A DNA stretch of 64,000 nt, taken from positions 1 to 64,000 of IMG/VR virus record IMGVR_UViG_3300043432_000238; one strand, written 5' to 3'. A program made the position numbers and the translations under genes. Positions 32,987 through 58,154 of the stretch are shown here, piece after piece (positions within the stretch are counted from its first letter, which is position 1; the number at the start of each line of letters is the position of its first letter). Origin of the DNA: a virus (Duplodnaviria > Caudoviricetes). The notes beneath the pieces were generated by a model that searched no databases, was not told where the DNA came from, and saw only the letters and a program-made list of their open reading frames with translations.

Positions 32987-33564
32987 GCGACGACAAGCCC
33001 GGCGCCTGGAAAGAGGGCCTCGAGCCCAAGCAGGTCCGCTTCGTCGAGGAATATCTCGTCGACCTCAACGGCACGCAGGCGGCGATCCGGGCCGGCTATT
33101 CCGAGCACACCGCCAACCAGCTCGCCTACCAGCTCTTGCGCAAGCCGAAGGTCGCCGAAGCCGTCGCATTGGCGATGGCCGAAAGACCCGGCGTCACGCG
33201 CGCGCGGATCGTCGACGAGCTGGCCAGCATCGCCTTCGCCAATGCCGGGGATTATTTCGCCTGGGGGCCAGACGGCGTCACCGTGAAGCCAAGCGATGAC
33301 CTGACGGAAGCCCAGCGCGGCGTCATTGCCGAGGTCAGCCAGACCGTCACCGAGAAGGGCGGCGCCATCCGCGTCAAGCTCTCGGATAAGCAGGCGGCGC
33401 TGGAGAAACTGGCGCGGGTGTTCGGCATGTTCTCCGACAAGGTCGAGCTGACCGGCAAGGGCGGCGAGCCGCTGGCGCCGGAGACCGGCACGCGCGATCT
33501 GGCCAGAGCGGTCTTGGATATTCTGCGCACGGCGCAAGTCAAGAAAGAGGGCGACGGCCAATGA
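32983..33564 (+). CDS. terS: terminase small subunit
   Basis: KQVRFVEEYLVDLNGTQAAIRAGYS...KQAALEKLAR. Confidence 0.92.
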   Translation: MSDDKPGAWKEGLEPKQVRFVEEYLVDLNGTQAAIRAGYSEHTANQLAYQLLRKPKVAEAVALAMAERPGVTRARIVDELASIAFANAGDYFAWGPDGVTVKPSDDLTEAQRGVIAEVSQTVTEKGGAIRVKLSDKQAALEKLARVFGMFSDKVELTGKGGEPLAPETGTRDLARAVLDILRTAQVKKEGDGQ

Positions 33565-33935
33565 TGCAGCGCATGCGATTCGACATCAATACCGATACTG
33601 GAACGCAGGGCGATACCGGTCCGGTTTTTTCCGGCATCATTCGCCAGATGGGCTGGGCACCAACGGTTAGCGATACTGGTGCCGCACTCTACGTAGCGTT
33701 AATCAACGCTCAAGGCGATACTTCCGGCGGTCTCACGCTCGTCAATGATGAGGACAGCCTTGGTGCCAGCTTTCTTCGCGCACCGGTCATCCCCGGTACT
33801 TCACCCGATGGTTTTGACACTGGTGTAGACCAGTATTTTCCGCCGGTCGCTGCGGGTGGCCGGCTTCGTATCAAAGTAACACCAGCAAGCGCTGGAGTCG
33901 CCGGCAAGCTGTACGTCTGGGCTGACAACGGCTGA
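33561..33935 (+). CDS. putative virion protein with 4 DTG motifs
   Basis: Beta-rich small protein; TDTG, GDTG, SDTG, FDTG. Confidence 0.7.
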   Translation: MMQRMRFDINTDTGTQGDTGPVFSGIIRQMGWAPTVSDTGAALYVALINAQGDTSGGLTLVNDEDSLGASFLRAPVIPGTSPDGFDTGVDQYFPPVAAGGRLRIKVTPASAGVAGKLYVWADNG

Positions 33936-33966
33936 TAACAGACATCTCCTGGGAGATGATTGAATT

Positions 33967-34353: not shown

Positions 34354-34394
34354 TCTCCCGTCTTTCTTACACGCATACAAAAGACTAACCATTA

Positions 34395-34955
34395 ATGCTC
34401 CACATCGTCTCCGGCTTCATGCGCTGCGGCACATCGATGATGATGCAGGCGCTGGAGGCTGGCGGCTTGGCAGCCGTCTATTCCACCCGGCGCGACGAGG
34501 AAATGAACGCCCGCTGGGGCGAGGCCGACTACAAGCCCAATGATAGCTATTACGAGCTGGACGGGGAGGATTATCTGCGCGGCGATCTCGAGCAGCGCTA
34601 TCCCGGCAAGCTGGTGAAGTGCCTGTGGGGCGGCGTTCTGCGCATGCCGCCCGGCGATTACCGCATCGTCTTCATGCGGCGCCCGGCGTCGGAGATCCGC
34701 GTCTCGCTGCTGGCGTTCTTCGGCACTGACTATGCGGCGGCCCGCATCCCCGATCTCGACCGGTCGATGGACGGCATCGTCGAGGTGCTGCGCGACCGCA
34801 GATCCTTCCGTTCCGTCGACGTGCTGCACTATCGCGATGTGCTGGCAAATCCATTTGCCGCATTCACCTCGCTGAAAGCGAGCGGATGGCCGATCGATGT
34901 TGCTGCCGCTGCCGCTATCCCGTCTCGCCAGAAGGCGCGCTTCAGCCATGCGTGA
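34395..34955 (+). CDS. sulfotransferase-family protein
   Basis: 5'-PAPS-binding-like IVSGFMRCGTSMMMQAL; IVFMRRP...S. Confidence 0.75.
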   Translation: MLHIVSGFMRCGTSMMMQALEAGGLAAVYSTRRDEEMNARWGEADYKPNDSYYELDGEDYLRGDLEQRYPGKLVKCLWGGVLRMPPGDYRIVFMRRPASEIRVSLLAFFGTDYAAARIPDLDRSMDGIVEVLRDRRSFRSVDVLHYRDVLANPFAAFTSLKASGWPIDVAAAAAIPSRQKARFSHA

Positions 34956-36204
34956 GATCGAGGCCAAGCGGACGCCGTGCTCCAAGACCTTCGATCTCGG
35001 CGACGGCCGGCACCGGCTAGATGTCGGCCAGCAGCCAAAGCATTATGAGCAGGACGGCCGGCTGCTCGACATCGACCTGACCCCGGAGTTCGACGCCGTC
35101 CGCGGCTGCCATGCGCTGCGCAACTGCCCCTATGCGCTGCAGGTCGCCCACGATGCGCCGGCCCATGTCTACAATTCCCGCAGCGGCAAGCGTGTCTCGA
35201 TCGAACTCGTCACTGAAGCCAGAGGCGCGCTCGCCGAGGGCGGCCTGTTCAAATGGGGTGAGGTCGGCCGCGACACCGATTACATCATCCAGCCACTCCC
35301 CGGCGGCTGCGCAACGCTGCTCGTGCTGAACACGCCATCTGCGCCGCGTGAGTGGTCATGGCGCGTCCAGGGTGACATGGACCTGATCGTGCCGTTGGTC
35401 GGACAGGATAGCGCCAGGCGGCGTCTGGAGCTGATCGAGACGCGCGACCCTGCCGCCTGCATCATCGCGGTCCGATGGACTGGCCGCACGATGGTGCCGC
35501 GAGAGCTCAGGCGGCAGAAGCAAACCGTCTGGACGGATGACGTCACCTGGCCGGTGGTCATTGACCCAACGGTCAACGAGAACATCGCCGCCAATGGTGA
35601 CGACGTGTGGTCTTACTGGAAAAACAACGGGGCAACATTCAGTTCCTTCAATGCGTATCCGCGATCATACCTTTACGCGGGCAGGGCCAACGCAGCTCGA
35701 AGCTATGCAGGATTGCGTTTCCAGACGATCGCAATTCCGGCCGGTTCTACCGTCAACTCGGCGACATTGACGATCCGCGTCACGGGCGTCACCGGCAGTC
35801 CCAATATCAATATATTTGGCAACGCTGTTGACGATGCGGCAGCTTTCACCTCGCCGGCCAACCGCATCAAGGCCATGACCAAGACTTCGGCTTCGGTGAA
35901 CAAGACATCCTGGACGAATGGTGCTGATAACGCCATTACGGTTACGAGCATCATTTCGGAACTGCTTGGAAGGGCCGGCTGGGCCTCCAATAACGACGTC
36001 GCGCTCGGGTTTTTCAACAATAGCGGCGCTAGCGTGAACTTCGTGAAATTCGCCGCGCTTGAGCACGCGACGCTCACCGAGGCCCGCCTTTCAATCGACT
36101 ACACGGCAGGCGGCGGTGGCGGCGGAACGGTTCTCGACCACTACGCCGACAAGGAATTCCAGAGCAGCCGCTTCGTCAAACCGAGGTTCCTGATCCGGCA
36201 ATGA
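34948..36204 (+). CDS. putative virion/fibre protein with DNRLRE-like C-terminal domain
   Basis: W.V.IDPT linker; AGLRFQTIAIPAGSTVNSATLT. Confidence 0.6.
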   Translation: MREIEAKRTPCSKTFDLGDGRHRLDVGQQPKHYEQDGRLLDIDLTPEFDAVRGCHALRNCPYALQVAHDAPAHVYNSRSGKRVSIELVTEARGALAEGGLFKWGEVGRDTDYIIQPLPGGCATLLVLNTPSAPREWSWRVQGDMDLIVPLVGQDSARRRLELIETRDPAACIIAVRWTGRTMVPRELRRQKQTVWTDDVTWPVVIDPTVNENIAANGDDVWSYWKNNGATFSSFNAYPRSYLYAGRANAARSYAGLRFQTIAIPAGSTVNSATLTIRVTGVTGSPNINIFGNAVDDAAAFTSPANRIKAMTKTSASVNKTSWTNGADNAITVTSIISELLGRAGWASNNDVALGFFNNSGASVNFVKFAALEHATLTEARLSIDYTAGGGGGGTVLDHYADKEFQSSRFVKPRFLIRQ

Positions 36205-37361
36205 CCATCAATTTCGGCAAGCGCAACGGCGGCGCGCTGACGGCGGCCTCTCCCGGCGACACGCTCTACATCCCGCTGAACTTCTACAACGACAGCGGTG
36301 CGAGCATCAGCATCGGCTCATCGCTCGCCGTCACCGATATCGAGGTGTTCAAGAACGGCGGCGTCGCCCAGCGTGCGACCGACAGCGGCTATGCGATCCT
36401 CGGCGACACCGGTAATTTCGATGAGCGGATCGGCTTCAAGGGCATCTCGATCTCGCTGTTCAACACGGCCGACGATCCAAGCTTCTATGCGGTAGGGTCA
36501 AGCTACTGGGTGGCGATCGACAGCGTCACGGTCGATGCGCGCACGGTGCGCTTTTTCCCGGCGGTGTTCGAGATCGGCGAGCCGCGCGCCAATGTCGTGC
36601 AGGTGAACGGCGACACCGGCGCCGCCGACGTGCTGCAGAAATTTGCCGGTACGGCTGGCACCTTGTCCCCGACCGGCGGCCTCGATACCGGTTCCGTCGA
36701 CAACAACAGCTATCTGACGGCCGATACCAAGCGCATGAGCGGCGACACGGGAGCCGCCGACGTGCTCAGGCAATTTGCCGCGACCAATGGCACACTATCG
36801 CCCACGGGCGAGCTGGATACGGGATCGGTCGCCAACAATTCCTATCTGCCGGGAAATGTGATCCGCTGGCTCGGTACCGCCGCCGCCGCGCCGACCTTGG
36901 CGGGCGTTCCGAAGGTAGAAGTTTCGTCCTTCGCCGATACGGGCATTCAGGACCGGCTCAACAAGATCGCATCTGACACGGACACCGGCATCAAGGACGG
37001 CGTGTGGGATAGCGCGACACGGACGCTGACAGCCAATACCAACCTGTCCGGCCTGCAAGTCAGCGTCACTGCTTTCTCCGACACTGGCGTCAACGACCGA
37101 TTGGCGAAGATTCTGGCGGATACCGACACGGGCATCCAATCCAGCGTCAACGTCACCAGCTTTGCCGATACCGGCGTCAATCAGCGGCTTTCCGCGATTG
37201 CAACGGAAGTCGCCACCGTCGATACGGCGACCAGCGCCATCAAGGCCAAGACCGACAGCCTGACCTTTACCGTGGCTGGCAACGTCGACGCCAATATCCA
37301 GCGCGTCAACGACGTTGCCGTCTCGGGCACTGGCGCGGCTGGCGACGAGTGGGGACCATGA
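36201..37361 (+). CDS. putative virion fibre/decoration protein with internal repeats and 10 DTG motifs
   Basis: Two copies of GDTGAADVL..FA.T.GTLSPTG.LDTGSV.NNSYL and three of F[AS]DTG[IV]..RL..I. Confidence 0.75.
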   Translation: MTINFGKRNGGALTAASPGDTLYIPLNFYNDSGASISIGSSLAVTDIEVFKNGGVAQRATDSGYAILGDTGNFDERIGFKGISISLFNTADDPSFYAVGSSYWVAIDSVTVDARTVRFFPAVFEIGEPRANVVQVNGDTGAADVLQKFAGTAGTLSPTGGLDTGSVDNNSYLTADTKRMSGDTGAADVLRQFAATNGTLSPTGELDTGSVANNSYLPGNVIRWLGTAAAAPTLAGVPKVEVSSFADTGIQDRLNKIASDTDTGIKDGVWDSATRTLTANTNLSGLQVSVTAFSDTGVNDRLAKILADTDTGIQSSVNVTSFADTGVNQRLSAIATEVATVDTATSAIKAKTDSLTFTVAGNVDANIQRVNDVAVSGTGAAGDEWGP

Positions 37362-37582
37362 CCACGACCATCACGCGGAGGGTCGCGGAGCCGCCGGCAG
37401 CCGGCAACACGGCGCGCGTGGCTGGCGTCAAAGGCTTCACCCACGACGCCTGGGGCGGTCACTGGGGAACGTCCTGGGGACTGACGTGGACGGTTCCGTT
37501 CACCTTCGGTGAGCTCGGCCTCTCCCGGCGGATAACGGCCGACGCTTCGACGAACAACACCAAGCGCATTACGGGGATCTGA
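37349..37582 (+). CDS. small hypothetical protein (WG-rich)
   Basis: WGGHWGTSWG; coupled ORF. Confidence 0.55.
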   Translation: MGTMTTTITRRVAEPPAAGNTARVAGVKGFTHDAWGGHWGTSWGLTWTVPFTFGELGLSRRITADASTNNTKRITGI

Positions 37583-37583
37583 C

Positions 37584-37787
37584 ATGGCTGGAAAGCCTGA
37601 GAAGTTCATGGCCAAGGCCGTACCGCCATCGCATCGCGGCCTCTTCACCGCCAAGGCCAAAAAGGCCGGCATGACCGTCGCCGGCTTTGCGGCCAAGACG
37701 CTGGCTGCCGGTTCCAAGGCCGATACCAGAACCAAGCGCCAGGCGGCCTTTGCCAAGGCTGCGGAGAAGATCGCCAGTGATCGCTGA
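37584..37787 (+). CDS. small basic protein
   Basis: Lys/Ala-rich; GLFTAKAKKAGM. Confidence 0.6.
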   Translation: MAGKPEKFMAKAVPPSHRGLFTAKAKKAGMTVAGFAAKTLAAGSKADTRTKRQAAFAKAAEKIASDR

Positions 37788-38454
37788 TGTCTTGCCGCAA
37801 CCATTGAGCCACGAAGAACTGCAAGGCATCGCCGGTGAGCCCTACGAGCCGCGCGGCATCCTGCATTCCGAGATGGCGCTGATCATCCACACCTGCCGGG
37901 CCTATGGCGTCGAGGTCGTGATCGAAAGCGGCCGGGCGCGCGGGCAGTCCACCTACATGCTGGCGACATATCTGCCGGACACCGAGATCCATTCGGTGGA
38001 GCTGCGCGGCTCGGCGGATGAAGAGTTTGCCTGCGAGCGTCTGAAGGATTTTGCCAATGTCGCGCTCTATAGCGGCGACGGGCGCGGCAGCCTGCCGCTG
38101 CTGGCGGCGAGCGAGGCGGGCGGGCGGCGGACGGCCATTCTCTGCGACGGGCCGAAAGGCGCAGCCGCCGTCGAGGTGCTGAAAGACTGCTTCCGCATGA
38201 GCCATGTGCGCGTCGGCTTCGTGCACGACATGCGCAGGCTCGACCACGGCCAGCCGTCGATGCACCGTGCCGCGGCCCTCGCCGCCTTCCCGGCGGCCAA
38301 GTTTTCCGATGAGCCCGCGATCGTCGCCAGCTCGTCCTGGATGGATGCCAATATCCTCGCGAGCGGCGGCCCCTGCGGCCCGGCGCACGAGGCGGAGTTC
38401 GGCTCTTACGGGCCGACCATCGGGGTGTTCCTGAACCCCAGCTTCAAGCACTAA
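37777..38454 (+). CDS. class I SAM-dependent methyltransferase-like protein
   Basis: VVIESGRARGQST...SVEL...LCDGPK...HD. Confidence 0.7.
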   Translation: MIADVLPQPLSHEELQGIAGEPYEPRGILHSEMALIIHTCRAYGVEVVIESGRARGQSTYMLATYLPDTEIHSVELRGSADEEFACERLKDFANVALYSGDGRGSLPLLAASEAGGRRTAILCDGPKGAAAVEVLKDCFRMSHVRVGFVHDMRRLDHGQPSMHRAAALAAFPAAKFSDEPAIVASSSWMDANILASGGPCGPAHEAEFGSYGPTIGVFLNPSFKH

Positions 38455-38491: not shown

Positions 38492-39370
38492 ATGACCTTC
38501 AGCATTCTGAAAGGCATTCACCGCCGTGCCTTGGGGCTCGGCAATGCGGGCGAGGTGGTCGCCCGCCACGGCGTGGTCGTCGGTGGCGACGACAAGCCGG
38601 CTATCTATCTTTCTGGTCCCGATACCGTGGCCTTGTTCGAGGACTTCACGGGACTGCAAGCCGGTGACACCGGCGAGCTGACGCTCCGCTATGGCCCCTC
38701 TCAGCTCATTATCGGTTTTTCCGACACGGGACAGATCGTGCCTCGGCAAGGGCCCGTCGCTCCAGCCTCAGCACTCGCCAATGGCGTGTTTCGCCTGACG
38801 TCGTCCGCGACGTCGACGCAAACGCCCATCGGCGGCGCGCAGAGCCTGAACACGCCTGCGATCTGGAAGGCGAACCAGGGCCAGTTGTCGCAACCCTACG
38901 CAAGGCCGCTGCATTTCGGCGTTCGGCTGAAGACGAACACGCTTGCCGGAAATAGCCTGTTTGTCGGCTTCACGGATTCTGGCGGTACCGAGATCGCCGC
39001 TTACGATACTGGTGGCGGCATCCTCACCCCAGCCGATGATTATGCCGGCTTCATCTGGTCAGGCGAAGGCGGTGCCACCCAGCAGGCTTATCGGGCCGTG
39101 ACAGGCAAGGCCGGTGTGGACCAGTCCGCGACGACCGGCGTCACGCCGACGGCCGGCGTCTACGACGTGCTCGAAGTCGAAGTCAGCCCGGATGGCGCCG
39201 TCGCTAGCTTCTTCATCAACGGCAAGTCCGTGGCGCAGATCACATCGGCGGCGCTCACTCCGACTGTAGCGCTCGGTGCCGGCGTATGGCGAGCCAACAC
39301 GGACGGGGCGGCCGATGCCATCGATATCGACTGGATCAATGTCGCCGCGCCTCGGGATACCGGCACTTGA
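38492..39370 (+). CDS. putative capsid decoration / lectin-fold protein with 4 DTG motifs
   Basis: Beta-sandwich-like composition, LFEDF, FFING, DIDWI. Confidence 0.65.
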   Translation: MTFSILKGIHRRALGLGNAGEVVARHGVVVGGDDKPAIYLSGPDTVALFEDFTGLQAGDTGELTLRYGPSQLIIGFSDTGQIVPRQGPVAPASALANGVFRLTSSATSTQTPIGGAQSLNTPAIWKANQGQLSQPYARPLHFGVRLKTNTLAGNSLFVGFTDSGGTEIAAYDTGGGILTPADDYAGFIWSGEGGATQQAYRAVTGKAGVDQSATTGVTPTAGVYDVLEVEVSPDGAVASFFINGKSVAQITSAALTPTVALGAGVWRANTDGAADAIDIDWINVAAPRDTGT

Positions 39371-39386: not shown

Positions 39387-40010
39387 ATGTTGGACGCGAT
39401 CATCGACGAAACGGCCGGCAGCCCCTCCCTGCCGGCCTCCACCCAAGTCAAGCCCACCGGCATCGCTATCCTCGGCTCGCATCCCCAGACCGTGGCGATG
39501 GCCCCCTTCGACAAGGCCGACTGGCTCATCTATGCCTGCTCGCCTCACAATATCGAACTACGCACCTTGCCGCGCTGGGACCAGTGGTTCGAGGTCCACT
39601 TGCCCGTCCAGGACAAGACGCGTTCCTATCACTATCTGCGCGGGCTCGAGGAACAGGCTCGCCAGAAGGAGGCGCGCGGCGAAGAACCCGTGATCTGGAT
39701 GCGGGACAAGCTGGCCCTGCCGCATTTCCCGTGGGCGAACCCATATCCGGAAGCAGAGATGAAGCGGCTGTTCTGCCCGTTTCTATTCTCCTCCTCGATC
39801 GCCTTCATGCTGGCCAAGGCCATCACCGATTGCGAGGCGCAAGGGCTCAAGCAGATCGGCCTGTGGGGCATCCTGCAGCGCGGCCAGGGCGAGTATGAGA
39901 AGCAGCGCCCGGGCACGCAGTATTTCCTCTGGGAGGCGACGCGGCGCGGCATCAAGGTGCTGGCGGCGCCGGAGAGCGGTCTATTCGAGATCCCGCCGGA
40001 GGATTTCTGA
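39387..40010 (+). CDS. conserved phage protein, possibly a sialyltransferase/Maf-like transferase fold
   Basis: IAILGS...SSIAFMLAKAI...IGLWGI...EY..QRP; fold is my inference. Confidence 0.5.
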   Translation: MLDAIIDETAGSPSLPASTQVKPTGIAILGSHPQTVAMAPFDKADWLIYACSPHNIELRTLPRWDQWFEVHLPVQDKTRSYHYLRGLEEQARQKEARGEEPVIWMRDKLALPHFPWANPYPEAEMKRLFCPFLFSSSIAFMLAKAITDCEAQGLKQIGLWGILQRGQGEYEKQRPGTQYFLWEATRRGIKVLAAPESGLFEIPPEDF

Positions 40011-40132: not shown

Positions 40133-40717
40133 ATGCTCTCCGTCACCGGTTATGGGTCGAAGATCATCGAGGAGCTGAAGCCGCTGCTGCCGGAAGGCGA
40201 GCAGATCGTCGCCTCGGCATGCGAGGGGCCGGTGCTGGAAGAAGCGCGCCGCTTCGTGCTCTGCGCCGGGCTCCTGCGTCCGGCACGGCTCGCCATGCAG
40301 ACGCCGGAGGAAACCGCCGAGGCGATGGAGGTGAACGTCTTCAAGCCGATCCGGCTTTGCGAGCACATCCTCAAGCGCTTCGACGATGCCCGGATCTGCG
40401 TCGTCGGCAGCGAATCCGCCTTCACCTGGTCCTATGACGACGCCTATGCGGCGGCGAAGGTGGCGCTGCACCGCTATGTCGAGACCCGCAAGCTGACGCC
40501 GAAACAGCAGCTGATCTGCGTGGCGCCTTCGATCATCGGCGATTGCGGGATGACGACGCGGCGCACCGACCTGGAGAACCTGGAGCGGCGCCGGCAGGAG
40601 CATCCGAAACGCCGCTTTCTCAAGGCCGCCGAAGTTGCGCGGCTCATTCATTTCCTGCTCTACGTTGACGAGGGCTATCTCTCGGGGCAGGTGATCCGGA
40701 TGAATGGCGGGGTCTGA
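40133..40717 (+). CDS. short-chain dehydrogenase/reductase
   Basis: VTGYGSKI, YAAAK catalytic motif, YLSGQVIRMNGG. Confidence 0.85.
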   Translation: MLSVTGYGSKIIEELKPLLPEGEQIVASACEGPVLEEARRFVLCAGLLRPARLAMQTPEETAEAMEVNVFKPIRLCEHILKRFDDARICVVGSESAFTWSYDDAYAAAKVALHRYVETRKLTPKQQLICVAPSIIGDCGMTTRRTDLENLERRRQEHPKRRFLKAAEVARLIHFLLYVDEGYLSGQVIRMNGGV

Positions 40718-40720: not shown

Positions 40721-41431
40721 ATGCTTTCCGTCTGCTGCTTTCTCTGGGACGATCCTTCCCGCGAGCGCGACTACACCTTCGGCGAGGGCCATGTCGTCAC
40801 GCTGCGCAACATGGTGGCGCGCCACCTACACCTGCCGCATGAGTTCGTCTGCGTCACCGACCGCACGCATATCGCCGAAGGCATCCGCTGTGTGCCGCTC
40901 GACGACCGCGTCCATGTCCCAGGCACGTGCGGGCGCAAGCTGACGATCTGGGCGCCGGACGCCGGGACACGCATCGGCACGCGCATCCTCAGTCTTGATC
41001 TCGACATGGTTATCGTCGACGACATCACGCCGCTGGTCGACCGGCCGGAGGACGTTGTGATGTTCCGCAATCCGAACTATGTCGAGGGCGGCCGGCGCGC
41101 CTTCTATCAGGGCTCGATCCAGCTCATGACGGCGAACAGCCGGCCGAAAGTATGGAACGTCCGTTTCCATCCGCACGCGCCGATGATCGTCAATCGCCGG
41201 TTCGGCGGCCACGAGCAGGCATGGCTCTCAGAGATGCTTCCCTGGACGGAGGCGCACTGGAGCGACGCCGACGGCATCTACGGCGCCGGCCGCGTCGGCG
41301 ACTGGACGGATAAGACTGTGGTCGCCGAGCTGCCGCCTGGCGCGCGCATCGTGGTATTCCCCGGCAACCGCGAGCCGGGCCAGCCGCATGTGAAAGAGAA
41401 GTTTCCCTGGATCACGGAGCACTATGCTTGA
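40721..41431 (+). CDS. DxD glycosyltransferase (GT8-like), paralog 1
   Basis: LRNMVARHLHLPHEFVCVTD...SLDLDMVIV. Confidence 0.8.
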   Translation: MLSVCCFLWDDPSRERDYTFGEGHVVTLRNMVARHLHLPHEFVCVTDRTHIAEGIRCVPLDDRVHVPGTCGRKLTIWAPDAGTRIGTRILSLDLDMVIVDDITPLVDRPEDVVMFRNPNYVEGGRRAFYQGSIQLMTANSRPKVWNVRFHPHAPMIVNRRFGGHEQAWLSEMLPWTEAHWSDADGIYGAGRVGDWTDKTVVAELPPGARIVVFPGNREPGQPHVKEKFPWITEHYA

Positions 41432-42039
41432 CTGACGCCTTGATGGAATACCTGCCGCCCGCCCCGCCGATGCCCGCCCTCGCACATGGCGCCGGCAAAT
41501 ATGTCGGCCCCGTCGCCGCGAACTACGACGCCAAGCGCGAGCAGTCGCCGAAATGGCTCGCCGAGCAGGCCATCATCGAAGGCTGGCTCGATGAGATGCC
41601 GGAAGGCAGCGTCATCCTCGACGCCCCCGTCGGCACCGGACGTTTCCTGGAGGTCTACGCCCGCCGCAAGTTCGACCTCTACGGCCTCGACCTCTCCGCC
41701 GATATGCTGAACCAATGTGCGGCCAAGATGCCGCTCGGCTTCAGCGCCAAGCTGGGCCAGGGAAATGTCCTGAGATGCGGCTTGCCCGACGCCCATGTCG
41801 ACGTCGCCGTCAACTGCCGCATCACCCGCTGGCTGTCGCCGGACGAGAACATCCTGCTCATGAAAGAGATGCAGCGCGTCTGCCGCAAGCGCATCATCTG
41901 GACGGCGCGCGTCGAGGGACACATCCACGCCCGCACCGTCGAGCTGTTCAAGAGCGCGCTCCATGGCTGGCAGATCACCCGCAATGTCGCCGGCTATGAG
42001 CCGGCCTACCGCATCCTGATGGCAGAACCGTCATGCTGA
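41428..42039 (+). CDS. class I SAM-dependent methyltransferase
   Basis: ILDAPVGTGRF, GLDLSADML. Confidence 0.88.
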   Translation: MTDALMEYLPPAPPMPALAHGAGKYVGPVAANYDAKREQSPKWLAEQAIIEGWLDEMPEGSVILDAPVGTGRFLEVYARRKFDLYGLDLSADMLNQCAAKMPLGFSAKLGQGNVLRCGLPDAHVDVAVNCRITRWLSPDENILLMKEMQRVCRKRIIWTARVEGHIHARTVELFKSALHGWQITRNVAGYEPAYRILMAEPSC

Positions 42040-42752
42040 CCGTCGCCACCTATTTCTGGCAGCCTGATAGCGGCAGCAAGTTCGCCGCGCCCTATACGCC
42101 TGACGATGTACGCCGGCTGCAGCGCGCCGTGGCGAAGAACCTGACGCTGCCGCATCGCTTCGCCGTCATCACCGACCGACCGCAATTGTTCGCTGATGAT
42201 GCCGCGATCACCGCCATTCCGATCGACTGGACAACGCACGTCCCGCGCACCTGCTATGTCCGGCTGATGACGTTTCATCCCGATGGCGCGGCGATCTTCG
42301 GCGAGCGCATCCTGCAGCTTGATCTCGACACGATGATCGTCGGCAATCTCGACGCCATCGCCTCTCGCGAGGAGGATCTCATTCTCTGGCGGAATTCCTG
42401 CTGGGGGCCTGCCTTCCCGAGCCGCGCGTTCTACAACACGTCCGTGCTGTCGCACCGCTGCGGCACCGAGCCCTATATCTGGCGTCAGTGCGCGCGAATG
42501 ACCGAAGCGGCGTGCAGGGCCCTGAAGGATGACCAATGGTATCTTTCCGCCGTCGTCGGCAAGGAAGCGCCCTATTTCGATGGCGCCCGTGACGGCGTTT
42601 ATCGCATCGCCCGCGAGGACACGCCGGGTTCCGGCGTCTGGGGGGCGCTGCCTAAAAACGCGCGGATCGTGACCTTCCCCGGATCTGAAGGCAAGGCTGA
42701 CAACCCACGCGTTCGGGCTGGCAATCCGTGGATCAGGGAGTTTGCAGCGTGA
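42033..42752 (+). CDS. DxD glycosyltransferase (GT8-like), paralog 2
   Basis: LQRAVAKNLTLPHRFAVITD...QLDLDTMIVG. Confidence 0.8.
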   Translation: MLTVATYFWQPDSGSKFAAPYTPDDVRRLQRAVAKNLTLPHRFAVITDRPQLFADDAAITAIPIDWTTHVPRTCYVRLMTFHPDGAAIFGERILQLDLDTMIVGNLDAIASREEDLILWRNSCWGPAFPSRAFYNTSVLSHRCGTEPYIWRQCARMTEAACRALKDDQWYLSAVVGKEAPYFDGARDGVYRIAREDTPGSGVWGALPKNARIVTFPGSEGKADNPRVRAGNPWIREFAA

Positions 42753-46826: not shown

Positions 46827-48448
46827 CATCAGCCACACTCGCCGACCTTCAGGCCATTGAGCGCCTGATCGAAGGACTGCCGCCGGAAAGCCGCAAGGCG
46901 CTCGAAAGCATCCCCGCGATCAGGGAACGGCTCGGCAAGTGGCGGCCAAACCCGGGGCCGCAAGAGCAGGCTTATTATTCGAAGGCCGATTGCCTGCTCT
47001 ATGGCGGCCAGCCCGGCGGCGGCAAGACCTCGCTGATTTTGGGCCTGGCCTTCAACGAGCATAAGCGCACGCTGATCATGCGCCGCGAATATGGCGGCCT
47101 CGACCGCATCATCGAGGATGCGCTGAAGATCCATGGCAGCCGCGATGGCTTCAACGGATCGCCGCCGCCCCGGCTGAAAATCGACGGTGACCGCGTGATT
47201 TATTTCCGCGCGGCGCACCGCGTCGGCGATGAGCAGGGCACCATGGGTCAGGGCCGCGATCTGCTCGCCATCGACGAGGCGACGCAATTCGCCGAGAGCC
47301 AGGTCCGCTTCATGATGGGCTGGGTTCGCTCGGAAGATCCGCGCCAGCGCTGCCGCACGGTGCTCGCCACCAATCCGCCGCTCCAAGCCGAGGGTTTGTG
47401 GGTGGTCAAGATGTTCGCGCCCTGGATCGACGAGCGCTACCCAAGGCCGGCGCTGCCCGGCGAATTGCGCTGGGTGGTGTCGGACGCGGAAGGCAACGAC
47501 GAATGGGTCGAGGGAGCGGATGACACGCGCGAGGTGGCCGGCAAGGTCGTCCGGCCGACCTCGCGGACCTATATTCCGGCGTCCACGAAGGACAACCCCT
47601 ATTACGTCGACAGCGACTATGAGCGCCAGCTCGACGCCATGCCGGAGCCGTTCCGCTCATTGCTCATGGGCGGCTTCAAGACGCAGTTCCGCGACGACGA
47701 CAACCAGCTCATCCCCACCGTCTGGGTGAAGGCGGCGCAGGCCAGGTGGAAGGCCGACGGCTGGAAAGAGTTCGATATGACGGCCATGGCGCTCGATCCT
47801 GCGGGCGGCGGTCCCGACAAGGGCGTGCTCGCCTGGCGTCATGGAGGCTGGTACGCGCCGCTCGTCGTCATCCGCGCGGATCAGGATGGCGATAGCGACG
47901 ATCCGAACGCATCCGCAGAACGAGCGATGCTTCGTGCTTCGAAAATGGCCGCCAGCGTCATCATGCATCGCCGCGCGAGCGCTCCGGTAATCGTCGATAT
48001 GGGCGGCGGCTATGGCGGCGATGTCTCGGCGCGGCTGAAAGAAAACGGCATCGCCTATCAAAGCTTCAACGGCGCCGAGAAATCGACCTTCATCGGCAAG
48101 GAGGGCGTCCGCTATGTCAATCGCCGCGCTCTCGCCTGGTGGCAGTTTCGTGACGAGCTCAATCCGGATCGCGAGGGCGGCTCGCTGATCGCCTTGCCGA
48201 ACGATCCTGAGCTCCTCGCCGACCTGACCGCGCCGCGGTTCGAGATGACGCGGGCCGGCGTCAAGATCGAGGACAAGGACGAGATCAAGAAACGGCTGGG
48301 CCGCTCGCCGGACAAGGGCGACGCTGCGGTGATGTGTCTCGCACCCGGTAACAAGGCCGTGAAACGCGTCGAGGCAATGCTTTCGCGCGGCGGCAAGCCG
48401 CTTCAGGCCAAGCTCGGCTATGCCAGCGCAAAAAGGGGAAAACGATAG
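46823..48448 (+). CDS. terL: terminase large subunit
   Basis: LYGGQPGGGKT, AIDEATQF, ATNPP, ALDPAGGGPD, SPDKGDA. Confidence 0.93.
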   Translation: MTSATLADLQAIERLIEGLPPESRKALESIPAIRERLGKWRPNPGPQEQAYYSKADCLLYGGQPGGGKTSLILGLAFNEHKRTLIMRREYGGLDRIIEDALKIHGSRDGFNGSPPPRLKIDGDRVIYFRAAHRVGDEQGTMGQGRDLLAIDEATQFAESQVRFMMGWVRSEDPRQRCRTVLATNPPLQAEGLWVVKMFAPWIDERYPRPALPGELRWVVSDAEGNDEWVEGADDTREVAGKVVRPTSRTYIPASTKDNPYYVDSDYERQLDAMPEPFRSLLMGGFKTQFRDDDNQLIPTVWVKAAQARWKADGWKEFDMTAMALDPAGGGPDKGVLAWRHGGWYAPLVVIRADQDGDSDDPNASAERAMLRASKMAASVIMHRRASAPVIVDMGGGYGGDVSARLKENGIAYQSFNGAEKSTFIGKEGVRYVNRRALAWWQFRDELNPDREGGSLIALPNDPELLADLTAPRFEMTRAGVKIEDKDEIKKRLGRSPDKGDAAVMCLAPGNKAVKRVEAMLSRGGKPLQAKLGYASAKRGKR

Positions 48449-53318: not shown

Positions 53319-53594
53319 ATGGCAAACTATCAGTCCGCCAACTTCAACCTTCGCAGCCAGTCGATCGCCGGCCGCAAGGAATGGGTCTACGAGGACACTG
53401 GACCGATCGCCGACGTGATCGCCTCCGGCTTCGTCTCCGACGGAGCGCAGAAGGGCGCAAGCGTGGGGGATTTCGTGAAATATTACGATACCTCGCGCGG
53501 CATCTGGTACGGCCTTCGGGTGAGTGCCCGAAGCGATACCGGCGCCACCCAGCTCACGCTCGACGGCCAGGTGATCATCGGCGATACGAGCTGA
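53319..53594 (+). CDS. capsid decoration/cement-like protein with 2 DTG motifs
   Basis: Directly after the capsid gene, before the terminator. Confidence 0.65.
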   Translation: MANYQSANFNLRSQSIAGRKEWVYEDTGPIADVIASGFVSDGAQKGASVGDFVKYYDTSRGIWYGLRVSARSDTGATQLTLDGQVIIGDTS

Positions 53595-54202: not shown

Positions 54203-54844
54203 GTGACGACCAAACTGGCGATCTTCAACGCCGCGCTCGACGAGCTCGGCGAGACCAATGTCTCGGACACCGGCGAGGCGATCGAATCCGCGCGCGTTCT
54301 GGCGCGCCGTTACGACCGCGTGGTCGCAGACTGCCTGTCGGCCGGCTCCTGGAACTTTGCCATGGAGACCATCCAGGCCGATGCCGATACCGGCGTCACG
54401 CCGTCCTTCGGCTACGCCAAGGTCTTCGCCAAGCCATCGGACTGGGTGAACACCGTGGCGATCTCGGCCGACCCGTATTTCACCTTCCCGCTGACGCAAT
54501 ATGTCGACGACGTCAATTTCTGGTCGTCGGATTATACGCCGATCTATGTGCGCTACGTCTCGAACGATACCGGGCTCGGCCTCGAGCTGGCGCGCTGGAC
54601 ACCGGCCTTCATCCGGTTCGTCGAGCTGGAGCTCGCCGATCGCTGCTGCATCAAGATCACGCAGAGCGAGACGACGAAGGAGCGGGTCGCCAAAGACCTG
54701 AAGAAGGCGAGGACCAAGGCGCTGGCTCAGGATGCCCTCAACGAGCCGCAGCCGAAATTTCCCCCGCCCGGCTCCTGGTCGATGTCGCGTTCCGGCCGCA
54801 TCGGCCTGCGCGACCGCGGCAACCGCAACTCGCTGATCGGCTGA
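54203..54844 (+). CDS. tail tubular protein A (adaptor), 3 DTG motifs
   Basis: IFNAALDELG...WNFA...F.Y.F.KPSD...F..FVELELA. Confidence 0.82.
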   Translation: MTTKLAIFNAALDELGETNVSDTGEAIESARVLARRYDRVVADCLSAGSWNFAMETIQADADTGVTPSFGYAKVFAKPSDWVNTVAISADPYFTFPLTQYVDDVNFWSSDYTPIYVRYVSNDTGLGLELARWTPAFIRFVELELADRCCIKITQSETTKERVAKDLKKARTKALAQDALNEPQPKFPPPGSWSMSRSGRIGLRDRGNRNSLIG

Positions 54845-54848
54845 TCCC

Positions 54849-57800
54849 GTGGCGAAGCAGAACGTCCCGCTGGTATCCTTCAATCGGGGGATCATCTCGC
54901 CGAAGGCGCTGGCCCGTGTCGATCTCGACCGCACGCGGCTGTCCGCCGAGGTCATGCGCAACTGGCTCGCCAAGACGCAAGGGGCGATGACCATCCGTCC
55001 GGGCACGAAGTATTTCGGCTCATCGCTGAACGATACCGGCGCGGCCTGGATCGAATTCGCCGCCGCGACCGACGATGTGGCGCTCCTGGAAGTGACGCCT
55101 CTGGCTATGCGCGTCTGGCTGGGCGATGACCCGCATGCTCTGGCGCTGCTGTCGCGCCCGCATGTCGACACCACGCTCAGCCTTTCCGATACCGGCTGGG
55201 AAGATGCCTCGACCGGCGGCACCTCTTCGACGAGTTCGACCGACGCCATCCCGACCATGACGGGTGCGACCACCAATGGCGTTACGATCAGCGCTTCGTC
55301 GGAGGACGCCTCAATTGGAGCGTCAGCCTGGAAGGTCGGCGACGACAACATCAGTAGTCTTTGGGTCGATACCGGCTTCTTCGAAGGCGGCACGCTGCCA
55401 TCCTGGCTGAAGGTCGATTTTGGCGCGGGCAATACCAAGACTATTGCCGCTTATTCGATCCGTGCCCCGGGCAACTCCAATGCGCTCGACAACGTGCCGC
55501 GCTCCTGGGACTTTCAGGGCAATGATGTCGATACCGGGTCCGATGCGTCCTGGACCACGCTCGACACCGGCGGCGACCAGACCGACTGGTCTGTCAGCGA
55601 GAAGCGGATCTTTACCGTCGGGTCTCCGCAAGCCTTCCGCTTCTATCGCTGGAACATCAAGGAAATCACCGGCGGCGGCGATGCGAGTGGCGAGATAGCC
55701 CTACCAGAAGTCGAATTATTCCCCTCTATCGTCAATACCAAGGCGGCCTTTTCCTCTGGCCGTTTGACGATGAACGCCACCGCCATCGGCGCTTTGGCCA
55801 GGGTGCGCAAGCGCGTCATTGTCGACACGGGTGATGCGGGCGTCGAGCATGGCCTCGCGATCAATATCGCACGCGGTCCCGTGACATTCCGCGTGGGGTC
55901 GAGCGTCGGTGATGACGATTACGTCAGCGAGACGGTGCTCGGCACCGGCTATCACAACCTCGCCTTTACACCCGCCAGCGATTTCTATGTCACGCTGCAG
56001 ACCGACGCCATTGTCAACCGGCTCATAAACTCGCTGGCCATCAGCGACACCGGCACGGTCTCGATAACCTCGCCGTGGGAAGCGGGGGATCTCGACAACA
56101 TCCGTTTCGACCAGTCGGCCGACGTGATCTATGTCGACTGCGCCGGCGTTCACCCAGCCAAGATTGAGCGCCGCGGCACTGGCCGGTCCTGGTCCGTCGT
56201 CCGTTATGAACCCAACAACGGCCCATTTCTTACCTCGCCTTCCAGCGCGGCCAAACTTTCGGTGAGCTTTTATTACGGCAACGTCACGCTGAGTTCCGAC
56301 GTACCCTTCTTCAAGCCTGGCCATGTCGGTGCGCTGATCCGGATCTTCCACGAAACGCAGGGAGGCCAATGGATACTCGGCACGCTCGACGCCAAGACGG
56401 ACGCGGTTGCGGTCACCGGAATTTCCGATACGGGCACGACGCCTCCCACGGATTCGGAACGGGCCATTACTTTTAACGTTGCCGGCAGCGGCGTATTTGC
56501 GACGACCATTGAGAAATCGGTCGATGGTGCCGAATTCGGCTTCAAGGCCATCTCCTCATCCATCGGCACTGCGACCGATACCGGTACACGTTCGCTTACG
56601 ATCATCGACAAGGACGATAATATCAAGGTCTGGTATCGTATCCGTGTCAGCTCTTACACATCGGGCGTTGTGTTGGTCGCTATCACCTATGATGGCGGCG
56701 GCGGTACTACCGGCATCGGACGCATCACCAGCTACAACTCCAACACTTCCGTCGCCATGGAAGTGCTCTCGCGCTTCGCCGAACTCGCTTCATCGGACAA
56801 TTGGCAGGAAGGCTATTGGTCGGATGCGCGCGGCTTTCCGAGCGCCGTCGCCCTGCATAGCGGACGACTGGCTCATGCGGGCGGTTCCACGCTGTTCCTC
56901 TCGGTCTCCGACGATTACGAGAATTTCGACGACACCACGGTCGGCGATGCCGGGCCGATCATCCGTACGCTCGGCTCGGGGCCGGTCGACGCCATCTATT
57001 TCCTGATCTCGCTGATCCGGCTGGTGATCGGCACCACGGGCTCGGAGCTGTCGCTGCGCTCATCCTCGCTGGACGAGCCGGTGACGCCGTCGAACTCGGC
57101 GGCGCGGTCGTTCTCGACCCACGGCTCGGCCAATATCCGCGCATTGAAACTCGACAGCCGCGGCATCCAACTGCAACGCTCGAAGCAGCGCATCTTCATG
57201 GTCGGCTTCGGTGCGACCAGCCAGACGCTCGGCGACTATGAAGGCGTCGAGCTGACGCTGTTCGTCCCCGATCTGCTGAAAGCCGGCGTCGTCTCGCTCG
57301 CCATCCAGCGCATGCCGGACACCCGCCTGCACTGCGTGCTTGCCGACGGCACCGTCGGCATCCTGACCTATGAACCGAACGAGGAGGTGATCTGCTGGCA
57401 GTTCTGGACCACCGAGGGCTCCGTGGAGAAGGCTATGGTGCTGCCCGGCGTCAGCGAGGACGCGGTCTATTACCACATCAACCGCACCGTCAACGGTCAC
57501 ACGAAGCGCTTCCTGGAGAAATGGGCCAAGGAGACCGAATGCCTCGGCGATAGCGGCCTCTGCTGGCTCGCCGACTGCGCCGTCTCCACCACCGACACCG
57601 GCCGGACGAAATCTCTGGCGGTGCCGCACCTCATCGGCGAGCGGGTCATCGCCTGGGGCGATCTCGACACCGGCTCCATGCCGCTGGTCGACCTCTCGCC
57701 GGACACCGATACCGGCGGCGCGCAGCGCACCTATCTGGTCGACACCGGCGGCGACATCACACTGGGCCTCACCGAAGGCGTGCATCACGGCGTCGCCGGC

Positions 57801-58154
57801 TTGCCCTATAGCGCCGCCTGGAAAAGCGCCAAGCTCGCCTATGCCGCCCAGCTCGGCACCGCGCTGACCATGAAGAAGCGCGTGCCCCAGCTCGGCATGG
57901 TGCTTTACCAGACGCACAATAACGGCCTGTTCACCGGCTCCGACACCGGCATGGACAAGGTGCAACCCCTGCCGCGCACGCTCGATAAGGGCGGCGTCGT
58001 CGATCCGGACAAGATTTATCCGGTCATCGACGAGGCCCCCTTCGCCTCGCCCGGCGGCTGGGACTCGGATTCGCGCGTGACGCTTCGGGCGAAAGCGCCC
58101 AGGCCCTGTACCGTGCTCGCCCTCGTGCCTGCGGTCGACACCAATGAGCAATAG
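54849..58154 (+). CDS. tail tubular protein B (nozzle) with discoidin-like insertion, 14 DTG motifs
   Basis: SFNRGIISP...N...G....RPGT N-terminus, GFPSAV..HSGRL; insertion WLKVDFG...Y.I...PRSWDFQG...FRFYRWNI. Confidence 0.85.
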   Translation: MAKQNVPLVSFNRGIISPKALARVDLDRTRLSAEVMRNWLAKTQGAMTIRPGTKYFGSSLNDTGAAWIEFAAATDDVALLEVTPLAMRVWLGDDPHALALLSRPHVDTTLSLSDTGWEDASTGGTSSTSSTDAIPTMTGATTNGVTISASSEDASIGASAWKVGDDNISSLWVDTGFFEGGTLPSWLKVDFGAGNTKTIAAYSIRAPGNSNALDNVPRSWDFQGNDVDTGSDASWTTLDTGGDQTDWSVSEKRIFTVGSPQAFRFYRWNIKEITGGGDASGEIALPEVELFPSIVNTKAAFSSGRLTMNATAIGALARVRKRVIVDTGDAGVEHGLAINIARGPVTFRVGSSVGDDDYVSETVLGTGYHNLAFTPASDFYVTLQTDAIVNRLINSLAISDTGTVSITSPWEAGDLDNIRFDQSADVIYVDCAGVHPAKIERRGTGRSWSVVRYEPNNGPFLTSPSSAAKLSVSFYYGNVTLSSDVPFFKPGHVGALIRIFHETQGGQWILGTLDAKTDAVAVTGISDTGTTPPTDSERAITFNVAGSGVFATTIEKSVDGAEFGFKAISSSIGTATDTGTRSLTIIDKDDNIKVWYRIRVSSYTSGVVLVAITYDGGGGTTGIGRITSYNSNTSVAMEVLSRFAELASSDNWQEGYWSDARGFPSAVALHSGRLAHAGGSTLFLSVSDDYENFDDTTVGDAGPIIRTLGSGPVDAIYFLISLIRLVIGTTGSELSLRSSSLDEPVTPSNSAARSFSTHGSANIRALKLDSRGIQLQRSKQRIFMVGFGATSQTLGDYEGVELTLFVPDLLKAGVVSLAIQRMPDTRLHCVLADGTVGILTYEPNEEVICWQFWTTEGSVEKAMVLPGVSEDAVYYHINRTVNGHTKRFLEKWAKETECLGDSGLCWLADCAVSTTDTGRTKSLAVPHLIGERVIAWGDLDTGSMPLVDLSPDTDTGGAQRTYLVDTGGDITLGLTEGVHHGVAGLPYSAAWKSAKLAYAAQLGTALTMKKRVPQLGMVLYQTHNNGLFTGSDTGMDKVQPLPRTLDKGGVVDPDKIYPVIDEAPFASPGGWDSDSRVTLRAKAPRPCTVLALVPAVDTNEQ

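Follow-up and report, generated by a model that had tools for sequence, protein, structure and literature searches.

Asp-Thr-Gly in virion proteins of a T7-like podovirus clade as a candidate sequon for phage-encoded O-glycosylation

The tripeptide Asp-Thr-Gly (DTG) occurs about 20 times more often than expected by chance in six proteins of an uncultured T7-like podovirus and in their counterparts across its clade, and from the sequence evidence it is most likely a hitherto undescribed attachment signal for virion glycosylation. The more specific reading, DTG as a sequon for phage-encoded O-glycosylation of the Thr, has in our judgment somewhat better than an even chance of being correct. The window, that is, the whole 64,000-nucleotide stretch of DNA analyzed, corresponds to positions 1 to 64,000 of the 79-kb phage genome, and all genes described below are on its + strand. 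A sequon-directed Thr modification had been proposed in the first-pass annotation; the protein-level motif, its restricted carriers and the adjoining glycan cassette stand, while the Bacteroidota analogy and the terms "sulfated" and "coating" do not.

Motif statistics and DTG-carrying proteins

Our recount reproduces exactly the annotated total of 37 DTG for the six proteins (2207 aa together), and the accompanying chance estimate of one to two agrees with within-protein shuffles (mean 1.78, maximum 8 in 20,000). Among tripeptides seen at least three times in the six proteins, only DTG is an outlier (z about 27), and a DT dipeptide is followed by Gly in 37 of 51 cases there vs 3 of 41 in the remaining proteome. 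The remaining 82 called ORFs hold 3 DTG in 19,539 aa. As had been claimed, portal, major capsid protein and terminase have none and the 810-aa protein has seven DT and no DTG; the motif count for the scaffold protein is also 0. At the DNA level, the + strand has 47 matches to GAYACNGGN and the − strand 4 (~7 expected on each), and frame 0 of the six genes holds 37 of these sites. Since all 37 are in frame with mixed synonymous codons (Asp: GAT 19, GAC 18; Thr: ACC 24, ACG 7, ACT 6; Gly: GGC 22, GGT 8, GGA 5, GGG 2), the signal resides in the protein, which bears out the proposed selection on protein rather than DNA. These statistics, the conservation of the sites and their restriction to a few proteins are direct observations.

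DTG is restricted to the two tail tubular proteins (A and B), one small protein of the head module and three products of genes lying between those for the terminase subunits, one of them fibre-like. Tail tubular protein A (gp11-like; 54203..54844; phrog_394, E = 7e-31) has three sites, all identical in 7/7 aligned clade sequences and missing from an outgroup of 24% identity. Tail tubular protein B, the nozzle (gp12-like; 54849..58154; phrog_376, E = 1.4e-124; profile match to PDB 8ck1 "Tail Nozzle", E = 2.6e-93), carries 14. The 91-aa protein encoded immediately 3′ of the major capsid gene (53319..53594; phrog_18004), possibly a head decoration protein, has two, both conserved across 6/6 aligned orthologues. 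Motif counts for the other three are 4 in a 124-aa protein of unassigned fold (33561..33935), 10 in a 386-aa fibre-like repeat protein (36201..37361) and 4 in a 292-aa protein (38492..39370). Orthologues of the first have 4-6 DTG in L027, L029, L103, L105, L106 and G012, those of the last have 4-10 in 10 of 12 relatives, and those of the fibre-like protein reach 35 in 923 aa (L034), 32 in 680 aa (L105) and 29 in 656 aa (L039). The ten sites of the fibre-like protein are not all independent events, because they derive from about five internal repeat types.

The same orthologues keep the enrichment in more than 20 IMG/VR relatives, the clade total being 65 DTG-rich ORFs with 496 sites, and these ORFs belong to more than seven protein families unrelated to one another. 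Of the 63 genome-wide DTG in one complete relative, 61 fall in 7 ORFs; in a second complete relative the figure is 37 of 39, in 5 ORFs. One complete sister phage has 2 DTG in the 17,252 aa of its whole genome, and complete sister phages without the GT8-like enzyme described below have genome totals of 0-2, with no DTG in the tubular proteins (24-39% identical). Flanking residues are only weakly constrained across the clade and show a 2.4-fold enrichment of Ser at −1. In the nozzle, DTG triplets are retained in 62% of homologue comparisons vs 25% for other triplets (P < 5e-5), rising to 68% if DSG is allowed, and DTG and DSG exchange at several orthologous sites. The enrichment of more than seven unrelated families with weakly constrained flanks supports the sequon reading, as does the nozzle retention together with the absence of these sites from the corresponding positions of sister-phage proteins.

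The enzyme cassette between the terminase genes

The genes for the small (32959..33564; phrog_51, E = 2.9e-36) and large (46823..48448; phrog_979 and phrog_2) terminase subunits, terS and terL, form the upstream and downstream boundaries of a 13-kb cassette in which DTG-rich genes are interleaved with enzymes in the late structural gene block. It is a real glycan-building cassette, as seen from its phrog_1962 DxD glycosyltransferases, its CstII/Maf fold and the UDP-galactopyranose mutase (GLF, E = 4.5e-63) and epimerase/dehydratase (E = 1.6e-49) of relatives, whose further extra enzymes are SDR, FkbM and radical-SAM proteins. Enzyme folds and families, like the presence/absence pattern, are established directly.

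Four core enzymes are present in 12/12 clade loci. The first, a GT8-like DxD glycosyltransferase, has three paralogues with an invariant LDLD (DxD) motif (40721..41431, 42033..42752 and 44717..45442), which match phrog_1962 (glycosyltransferase) with E = 5.7e-10, 1e-9 (backed by the paralogue alignment) and 2.3e-10 (75% identical to the G002 copy), respectively. The best solved relatives of the family profile are glycogenin-1 (E = 0.003) and Skp1 glycan galactosyltransferase, and Pfam GT8 matches just 2 of 16 family members (E = 0.019). BLAST detected no similarity of these proteins to mycobacteriophage records, with four phage records matched in all. The second, a 207-aa CstII/Maf-fold (GT42-like) transferase (39387..40010), was assigned from an AlphaFold2 model (pLDDT 82.5, pTM 0.81) whose best Foldseek matches are CstII/CstI (E = 5.6e-5) and which VIA-align places near Cst-I (Z = 10.6) and Maf 5mu5 (Z = 10.0); none of its 299 metagenomic relatives has a functional name. 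The others are a class I SAM methyltransferase (41428..42039; Methyltransf_25, E = 4e-11) and a 224-aa P-loop kinase-like protein (45770..46444; sub-threshold AAA_18/AAA_33 Walker A matches). A 182-aa conserved protein just 5′ of terL (46278..46826, start uncertain) is likewise found in 12/12 loci and has no Pfam or PHROG match.

The variable part includes a short-chain dehydrogenase/reductase (SDR; 40133..40717; adh_short_C2, E = 3e-11; 7/12 relatives) and two FkbM-family methyltransferases (42728..43570; Methyltransf_21, E = 1.2e-13; 2/12 relatives; and 43567..44394; E = 3.4e-9; 3/12). A 255-aa putative sugar O-methyltransferase (37687..38454; 5/12 relatives) has no Pfam match and is a lead from its Atlas neighbours, Methyltransf_24 and RMNT_CmcI. 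The neighborhood of three DxD glycosyltransferases, four methyltransferases, an SDR and a sulfotransferase described earlier thus holds for the glycosyltransferases and, at Pfam thresholds, for the SDR and three methyltransferases, with the fourth methyltransferase a lead only. The sulfotransferase is dropped: the 186-aa protein (34395..34955) has a weak sulfotransferase-like N-terminus (Sulfotransfer_4, E = 0.096, below threshold) and is present in 1/12 relatives, and because its identity is not established, a "sulfated" glycan is without basis. The adjacent 435-aa protein (34897..36204) has no DTG, no assigned function, a weak DNRLRE-domain match (E = 0.0019, below cut-off) and, among 12 relatives, a homologue only in L103. 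A search of five complete clade genomes for a CMP-sugar synthetase (PF02348) gave no match; any CMP-ulosonic donor would therefore need to be supplied by the host, which counts against the sequon reading.

The GT8-like enzyme is present in 5/5 clade records and 0/5 sister records (four of them complete). DTG had been predicted to co-occur with the glycosyltransferase cluster, and cassette-bearing clade members do keep it, whereas sisters without the GT8-like enzyme do not. This pattern and the core enzymes in 12/12 loci support the sequon reading, although the association is confounded with phylogeny because it has a single evolutionary origin. The unrelated phages L028 and TvV-S20 carry a comparable module (sialyltransferase-annotated, GT8-like and methyltransferase genes, with a kinase-like gene as well in L028) inside head operons, which suggests virion proteins as the usual target. 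Counting against the sequon reading, no excess of DTG or another tripeptide was seen across the records of same-enzyme-family phages TvV-S20 and EBPR siphovirus 3 (a partial record) or within the loci examined of L026, L028, L033, L038, L040 and L041; sister podoviruses carry a CstII/Maf-like gene (30-34% identical), yet without DTG. Proteins outside the target set show no clade-specific avoidance of DTG either, and the lack of DTG in the major capsid protein does not bear out a glycan coating the particle.

Structural context and proposed chemistry

DTG may instead be a cis-acting structural element inherited from the clade ancestor, such as a turn of Asx/ST type following a β-strand or, within the repeats of the fibres, a short-helix N-cap, with the enzymes acting elsewhere, for instance on the host envelope or lipopolysaccharide; we regard this as unlikely. 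It would fit the same-enzyme phages without DTG excess, the nozzle, where about 14 of 28 D[ST]G site clusters are near-universal in the clade and lineage-specific sites do not exceed their chance frequency, and the single D, T and G residues of the motif, conserved only modestly more than the same residues elsewhere. In the fibre-like protein each DTG begins an 11-22-aa repeat unit, and the regular 11-, 15- and 20-22-residue spacings resemble a repeat boundary; belonging to a periodic repeat, these sites could have a structural role there. On the other hand, sister-phage proteins of the same fold (39% and 24-29% identical) do without DTG at those positions, and more than seven unrelated families with varied contexts and near-free flanks are unexpected for a fold-specific motif. 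The genome's internal proteins and enzymes also lack DTG, and the cassette enzymes are interleaved with DTG-rich genes in the late structural block. Because the context of DTG differs between the starts of fibre repeats and the nozzle, where it mostly follows β-strands in a low-confidence model, a trans-acting reader is favored over one structural role. The suggested surface-loop check on the nozzle model gives weak support: 11 of 14 sites are in coil (58% coil overall) and 10 of 14 are close to indels (vs 47%, p = 0.06), and pLDDT is only 45.

A tag recognized in trans need not serve a Thr glycan, and phosphorylation, Asp modification or docking, be it of a host ligand or of a further virion component, which we consider slightly less probable still than the structural element, would also use one. 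Thr phosphorylation, possibly as methyl-phosphate, could involve the P-loop kinase-like protein and the SAM methyltransferase, which are as universal as the transferases (12/12 loci), and Asp and Gly are required as strictly as Thr, with no ETG or NTG in the tripeptide count of the six proteins. A tail-protein methylation required for infectivity is reported from mycobacteriophages (PMC13445384). Ser in place of Thr at orthologous sites agrees with a hydroxyl acceptor, and equally well with phosphorylation. Against these variants, the kinase-like protein has Atlas neighbours with AAA_33, AAA_18 and SKI (shikimate-kinase) families, which we take to be small-molecule or nucleotide kinases rather than protein kinases, and the variable cassette part consists of nucleotide-sugar enzymes, sensible only if a glycan is built.

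Under the sequon reading, the clade would write the DTG tag into exposed virion proteins (tail tubular A and B, small head-module and fibre-like proteins), and the cassette enzymes would modify these in the cytoplasm while late genes are expressed, most likely by O-glycosylation at the Thr hydroxyl. A GT8-like or the CstII/Maf-fold transferase may initiate the glycan, the remaining transferases lengthen it, and methyltransferase(s) and the P-loop kinase-like enzyme cap it; the relative-specific enzymes (UDP-galactopyranose mutase, epimerase/dehydratase, SDR, FkbM, radical-SAM) would make the glycan differ between relatives, the tag itself being constant. We infer that the cassette enzymes act on virion proteins with Thr as acceptor, and any assignment of the DTG reader or of a role to the glycan is equally indirect.

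Comparison with known systems

Freeman and colleagues are said to have described in 2023 virion glycosylation by phage-encoded glycosyltransferases in mycobacteriophages Che8, Corndog and Myrna. There, as proposed here, cytoplasmic phage glycosyltransferases and methyltransferase genes are thought to put O-linked glycans on exposed virion proteins. To our knowledge the targets are capsid and tail-tube subunits and no three-residue sequon has been described, whereas here a strict D-T-G lies in tail tubular A/B, fibre-like and small head-module proteins, with none in the capsid. The general O-glycosylation sequon of Bacteroidota, reportedly D-(S/T)-(A/I/L/V/M/T) (Fletcher, Coyne and Comstock in 2009), is similar in its three residues, with Asp first and a Ser/Thr acceptor second, and its many sites per protein. 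The analogy drawn in the first-pass annotation fails at the third position, Gly in 37/37 sites and outside the accepted set; moreover, the Bacteroidota machinery works, as far as is known, on proteins that cross the inner membrane, whereas phages are put together in the cytoplasm.

Maf enzymes O-glycosylate flagellin Ser/Thr, that is, surface-exposed residues of a self-assembling protein in the cytoplasm, and the clade-universal 207-aa enzyme is predicted to share the fold of Maf and CstI/CstII (GT42). Identity is only 11-18%, the phage enzyme is far shorter than the 632-residue 5mu5 chain, and Maf enzymes are reported to lack a sequon (PMC11339370), the phage genomes for their part having no detected CMP-sugar synthetase. 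The three GT8-like paralogues, with their invariant LDLD, resemble the retaining GT-A glycogenin/GT8 enzymes, glycogenin-1 being found by the profile. Glycogenin and Skp1 glycan galactosyltransferase are cytoplasmic and act on protein or protein-linked glycan, and the glycogenin-type family includes a protein-priming enzyme. However, the match is weak, and glycogenin glucosylates its own tyrosine, not Thr of other proteins; we know of no characterized glycosyltransferase that reads D-T-G. Bacillus anthracis BclA, O-glycosylated on Thr of collagen-like GPT repeats, differs in being a Gly-X-Y collagen triple helix, whereas the phage sites are 11-22 residues apart in fibres and irregular in globular tail proteins, with Asp at −1 obligatory; in BclA too, however, Thr followed by Gly, many times over in a surface fibre, is a glycan attachment site.

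DTG-rich proteins of the late gene module

The source record is a 79,332 bp IMG/VR virus, estimated to be 99% complete, and the window comprises its first 64 kb. The late region of the window is a T7-type structural module, in which the large terminase (46823), the portal (48922), a scaffold-like protein (51167) and the major capsid protein (52472) are followed by a 91-aa protein (53319), a 170-aa protein, tail tubular protein A (54203; phrog_394, E = 7e-31) and tail tubular protein B, the nozzle (54849; phrog_376, E = 1.4e-124; PDB 8ck1 'Tail Nozzle', profile E = 2.6e-93). Both full-length homology and the gene order capsid - gp11 - gp12 - internal proteins identify, at the sequence level, 54203 as the adaptor (tail tubular protein A) and 54849 as the nozzle (tail tubular protein B) of a T7-like tail. 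Behind the nozzle lie internal proteins of 122, 167 and 810 aa and then, at the position of a T7 gp16-type internal protein, a single ORF of 3947 aa (window 61455-64000, extending to position 73298 of the full record), which contains only one DTG and has a 4325-aa counterpart in one relative. Megablast returned no close relative among isolated phages, the best protein matches sharing 21-29% identity. The contig starts with a CRISPR-like array (window 1-720) of 12 copies of the 28-nt repeat CGTCCCCCTCTACGCGCTCGGGACGACC with a 61-bp period. The exact repeat is without a match in the GTDB representatives (one genome per species), the Maf-like profile used for the same host search matched only a 2.9-kb MAG fragment, and an NCBI metagenome contig yielded no host.

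The counts of Asp-Thr-Gly (DTG) reported in the first-pass annotation are exact, with 4, 10, 4, 2, 3 and 14 copies in the proteins starting at 33561, 36201, 38492, 53319, 54203 and 54849, respectively, giving 37 in 2207 aa. Its rough expectation of one to two copies is likewise borne out by within-protein shuffling (mean 1.78, never above 8 in 20,000 trials), and the genome-wide count finds 3 DTG in the 19,539 aa of the remaining 82 called ORFs. Among tripeptides occurring more than twice in the six proteins, DTG is the sole outlier (z ~27). Gly follows Asp-Thr in 37 of 51 pairs in these proteins, the other 14 of 51 being followed by a different residue, versus 3 of 41 elsewhere. Asp and Gly of the motif are essentially fixed, and neither ETG nor NTG occurs in the six proteins. 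The ten sites of 36201 fall into about five internal repeat types and are therefore not ten independent events. Avoidance of DTG in non-target proteins is not significant, and a sister phage is similar in this respect.

The degenerate sequence GAYACNGGN is present in 47 copies on the coding strand and 4 on the opposite strand (about 7 expected per strand), with 37 of the 47 in frame 0 of the six genes. Each of the three residues is encoded by a mix of synonymous codons, as had been claimed. Since the excess is confined to the reading frame of these genes, is strand-biased and is written in mixed codons, the signal lies in the protein and not in the DNA, and a DNA-level motif such as a methylation or binding site is ruled out.

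Enzymes encoded between the terminase genes

Between the small terminase gene (terS, 32959) and the large terminase gene (terL) lie about 13 kb of genes for fibre-like proteins and glycan enzymes (window 32959-48448). Several relatives share this arrangement (for example, genome G002 and loci L103 and L105), and terS adjoins terL in genome G011 (locus L029). Three of the DTG-rich genes lie in this stretch together with the enzyme set. The three DxD glycosyltransferases proposed earlier are three paralogues of ~240 aa (40721, 42033 and 44717) with an invariant LDLD and a match to phrog_1962 'glycosyltransferase' (E ~1e-10). D93 and D95 of this motif do not vary among 16 diverse family members, and the solved structures that best match a profile built from the 16 are glycogenin-1 (E = 0.003, weak) and the Skp1 glycan galactosyltransferase. 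Only 2 of the 16 members match Pfam Glyco_transf_8 (E = 0.019); the glycogenin-1 match is weak, yet consistent with a GT8 assignment by sequence profile. The cassette also encodes one class I and two FkbM methyltransferases, an SDR, a P-loop protein with AAA_33/SKI kinase families among its Atlas neighbours, and another protein whose Atlas neighbours are sugar O-methyltransferases. The proposed sulfotransferase (34395) is not supported, the match being below threshold and the gene occurring in only one of twelve relatives.

The 207-aa protein of the cassette (39387-40010, 39387 being the true start) gave no Pfam, PHROG or PDB sequence-profile match. An AlphaFold2 model built from eight homologues (pLDDT 82.5, pTM 0.81) was compared by Foldseek and returned the Campylobacter CstII/CstI sialyltransferases (CstII E = 5.6e-5, probability 1.0, TM ~0.5). 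VIA-align, an all-against-all aligner independent of Foldseek, ranked Cst-I (Z = 10.6; 163 residues at rmsd 3.8) first and the flagellin glycosyltransferase Maf (Z = 10.0; 158 residues at rmsd 3.6) second of 48,161 chains. Its next matches are MptE-type pyrophosphokinases of the same superfamily (MptE HPPK, Z = 9.0). The shared three-dimensional fold assigns the modelled protein to the GT42/Maf/MptE-like fold; its MptE/TPK relatives mean that the predicted enzyme may instead have a pyrophosphokinase-type activity, next to the higher-scoring Cst-I and Maf matches. No CMP-sugar synthetase (CTP_transf_3) was found in five complete genomes of the clade, so that a CMP-ulosonic donor, if used, must come from the host. 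Between the gene of this protein and the SDR, a strongly hydrophobic frame of about 38 codons with coding-type GC3 (window 40013-40130) may encode a small membrane peptide.

Conservation of motif and enzymes among relatives

In eight IMG/VR contigs with nozzles 56-65% identical to that of the window, the enrichment is kept in the same orthologues, with 2-3 DTG in the 91-aa protein, 3 in tubular protein A and 11-17 in the nozzle, while 0-1 are present in two contigs whose nozzles are 24% identical. In two complete relatives, both bearing terminal repeats, 61 of 63 DTG are concentrated in seven ORFs and 37 of 39 in five ORFs, respectively; a complete sister phage with 39% identical tubular proteins has 2 DTG in 17,252 aa, neither of them in the tubular proteins. 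All three sites of tubular protein A are identical across seven aligned clade sequences. The nozzle shows 28 clusters of D[ST]G sites over nine clade sequences, about half of which are nearly universal, the remainder being lineage-specific in a number roughly as expected by chance. Homologue comparisons of the nozzle give 62% retention of DTG as a unit (68% including DSG) versus 25% for other tripeptides (P < 5e-5), and Thr and Ser are exchanged at several orthologous sites. Some relatives own additional DTG-rich ORFs without a counterpart in the window (locus L103:13219-14412; locus L116:915-2418; locus L034:3043-3348), of 398 aa with five DTG, 175 and 146 aa with four each, and 101 aa with three. 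The tag has thus spread to lineage-specific proteins.

By tblastn, five genes recur throughout a set of twelve clade loci or genomes. They encode the GT8-like transferase, in one to three copies, the CstII/Maf-fold protein, the P-loop kinase-like protein, the class I methyltransferase and a protein of 182 aa with unknown function. Locus L025 was found by the same search to have both the methyltransferase and the kinase. The SDR, the FkbM enzymes and the other methyltransferase (37687) vary among the twelve loci; the FkbM methyltransferases, present in only two to three of twelve relatives, are ruled out as obligatory partners. Relatives carry further sugar enzymes in the cassette slot, namely a UDP-galactopyranose mutase (E = 4.5e-63) and an NAD-dependent epimerase/dehydratase (E = 1.6e-49), as well as a B12/radical-SAM enzyme and an FAD oxidoreductase. 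The mutase, the epimerase/dehydratase and the B12-binding radical-SAM enzyme are located at L114:10693-11847 and L105:10707-13162 in two of these loci, and their presence suggests furanose-containing or C-methylated sugars in some clade lineages. The universal genes thus form the constant core of the cassette, a true glycan-building locus that diversifies through its variable sugar enzymes. The co-occurrence of DTG and glycosyltransferase that had been predicted is observed, the GT8-like profile being present in all 5 clade records and in none of the 5 sister records (four of them complete), and with a single evolutionary origin it is inseparable from common descent.

Proposed recognition of DTG and comparison with known systems

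The expectation that the sites lie in surface loops was followed up on an AlphaFold2 model of the nozzle, which was too poor (pLDDT 45) for placing them on the surface; in it, 11 of 14 sites are in coil versus 58% coil overall. Ten of the 14 are near alignment indels against a background of 47% (p = 0.06), and model and alignment together weakly support loop positions for the nozzle sites. DTG mostly follows β-strands in this low-confidence model. In the fibre-like orthologues, by comparison, it stands at the start of repeat units of 11, 15 or ~21 residues, with up to 35 copies in 923 aa. Over 65 DTG-rich ORFs with 496 sites in all fetched loci, the residues around the motif are hardly constrained, Ser at -1 (2.4-fold enriched) being the most preferred. 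These differing contexts and free flanks favour recognition by a common factor over one structural role. We regard as unlikely the reading of DTG as a structural turn or cap that was inherited, with the enzymes working on something else. DTG could also be a tag for another modification or for binding, which we consider quite improbable.

With modest confidence, we favour the reading of DTG as a sequon at which phage-encoded enzymes O-glycosylate Thr, a reaction that would take place in the cytoplasm on virion proteins that are assembling or already folded. The motif would be recognised by the GT8-like or the Maf-fold enzyme. More tentatively, and with slightly more doubt than belief, we propose a strict DTG sequon read by one of these cytoplasmic transferases, with swappable tailoring enzymes producing a lineage-specific methylated glycan on tail, fibres and head. 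Maf enzymes are reported to act without a sequon (PMC11339370). The CstII/Maf-fold marker enzyme forms 299 clusters at 90% identity in metagenomes.

The analogy with the Bacteroidota sequon D-(S/T)-(A/I/L/V/M/T), drawn in the first-pass annotation, fails at the third position, which is Gly in 37 of 37 copies. As Gly is outside that set and the Bacteroidota system acts on exported proteins, whereas the DTG carriers are homologues of T7-type tail proteins assembled in the cytoplasm, DTG is not the Bacteroidota sequon. Virion glycosylation of the mycobacteriophage type entails a glycan on virion proteins that depends on phage GT genes. The present phage is uncultured and known only from a metagenome, and its case is one of gene linkage and motif statistics. 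We know of no defined signal in the mycobacteriophage systems, and full-text literature searches found no paper tying DTG to phage glycosylation. To our knowledge, DTG would be the first defined sequon of a soluble bacterial or viral O-glycosyltransferase. If so, it would be the shortest among the defined signals of cytoplasmic O-glycosyltransferases, as well as a portable three-residue glyco-tag for engineering folded proteins with no membrane machinery. A widespread group of uncultured podoviruses would then coat its host-contacting parts with lineage-specific glycans, with consequences for adsorption, for shielding against proteases or lectin-like defences of the host, and for recognition of the phage by antibodies or grazers.

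Independent replicates were sought through both enzyme families. Among 79 viral loci fetched with the GT8-like family, the DTG excess is found only in those of this clade, and no other tripeptide is enriched in the GT8-like loci outside it; phage TvV-S20 and the partial EBPR siphovirus 3 record, with glycosyltransferases 30% identical, show no tripeptide excess. CstII/Maf-like homologues of at least 40% identity are all in the clade, and those 28-35% identical belong to sister podoviruses, where the gene adjoins terL and DTG is absent. An unrelated HK97-type siphovirus (L028:4015-10308) encodes, immediately downstream of its capsid gene, a sialyltransferase-like protein, a GT8-like protein, a methyltransferase and a kinase-like protein, and the likewise unrelated siphovirus TvV-S20 (locus L022, 26950-32533) has a comparable sialyltransferase-like/GT8-like/methyltransferase block between its capsid and head-closure genes. 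DTG is not enriched in TvV-S20 or in the fetched L028 locus, so the module does not require it. The placement in unrelated head operons supports virion proteins as the module's usual target, and the block may represent a wider, uncharacterised virion-modification module.

The IMG/VR pattern scan for three DTG at 11-residue spacing gave 87 matches and was uninformative as support, the non-clade matches inspected being collagen-like GDT/GxT or simple tandem repeats. Several unrelated viral contigs (L147, L202, L176, L208, L139 and others) encode collagen-like Gly-X-Y proteins rich in GDT, near which no homologues of the cassette enzymes were found. These proteins contain up to 139 DTG in 1116 aa and recall in form Thr-glycosylated collagen-like fibres such as BclA.
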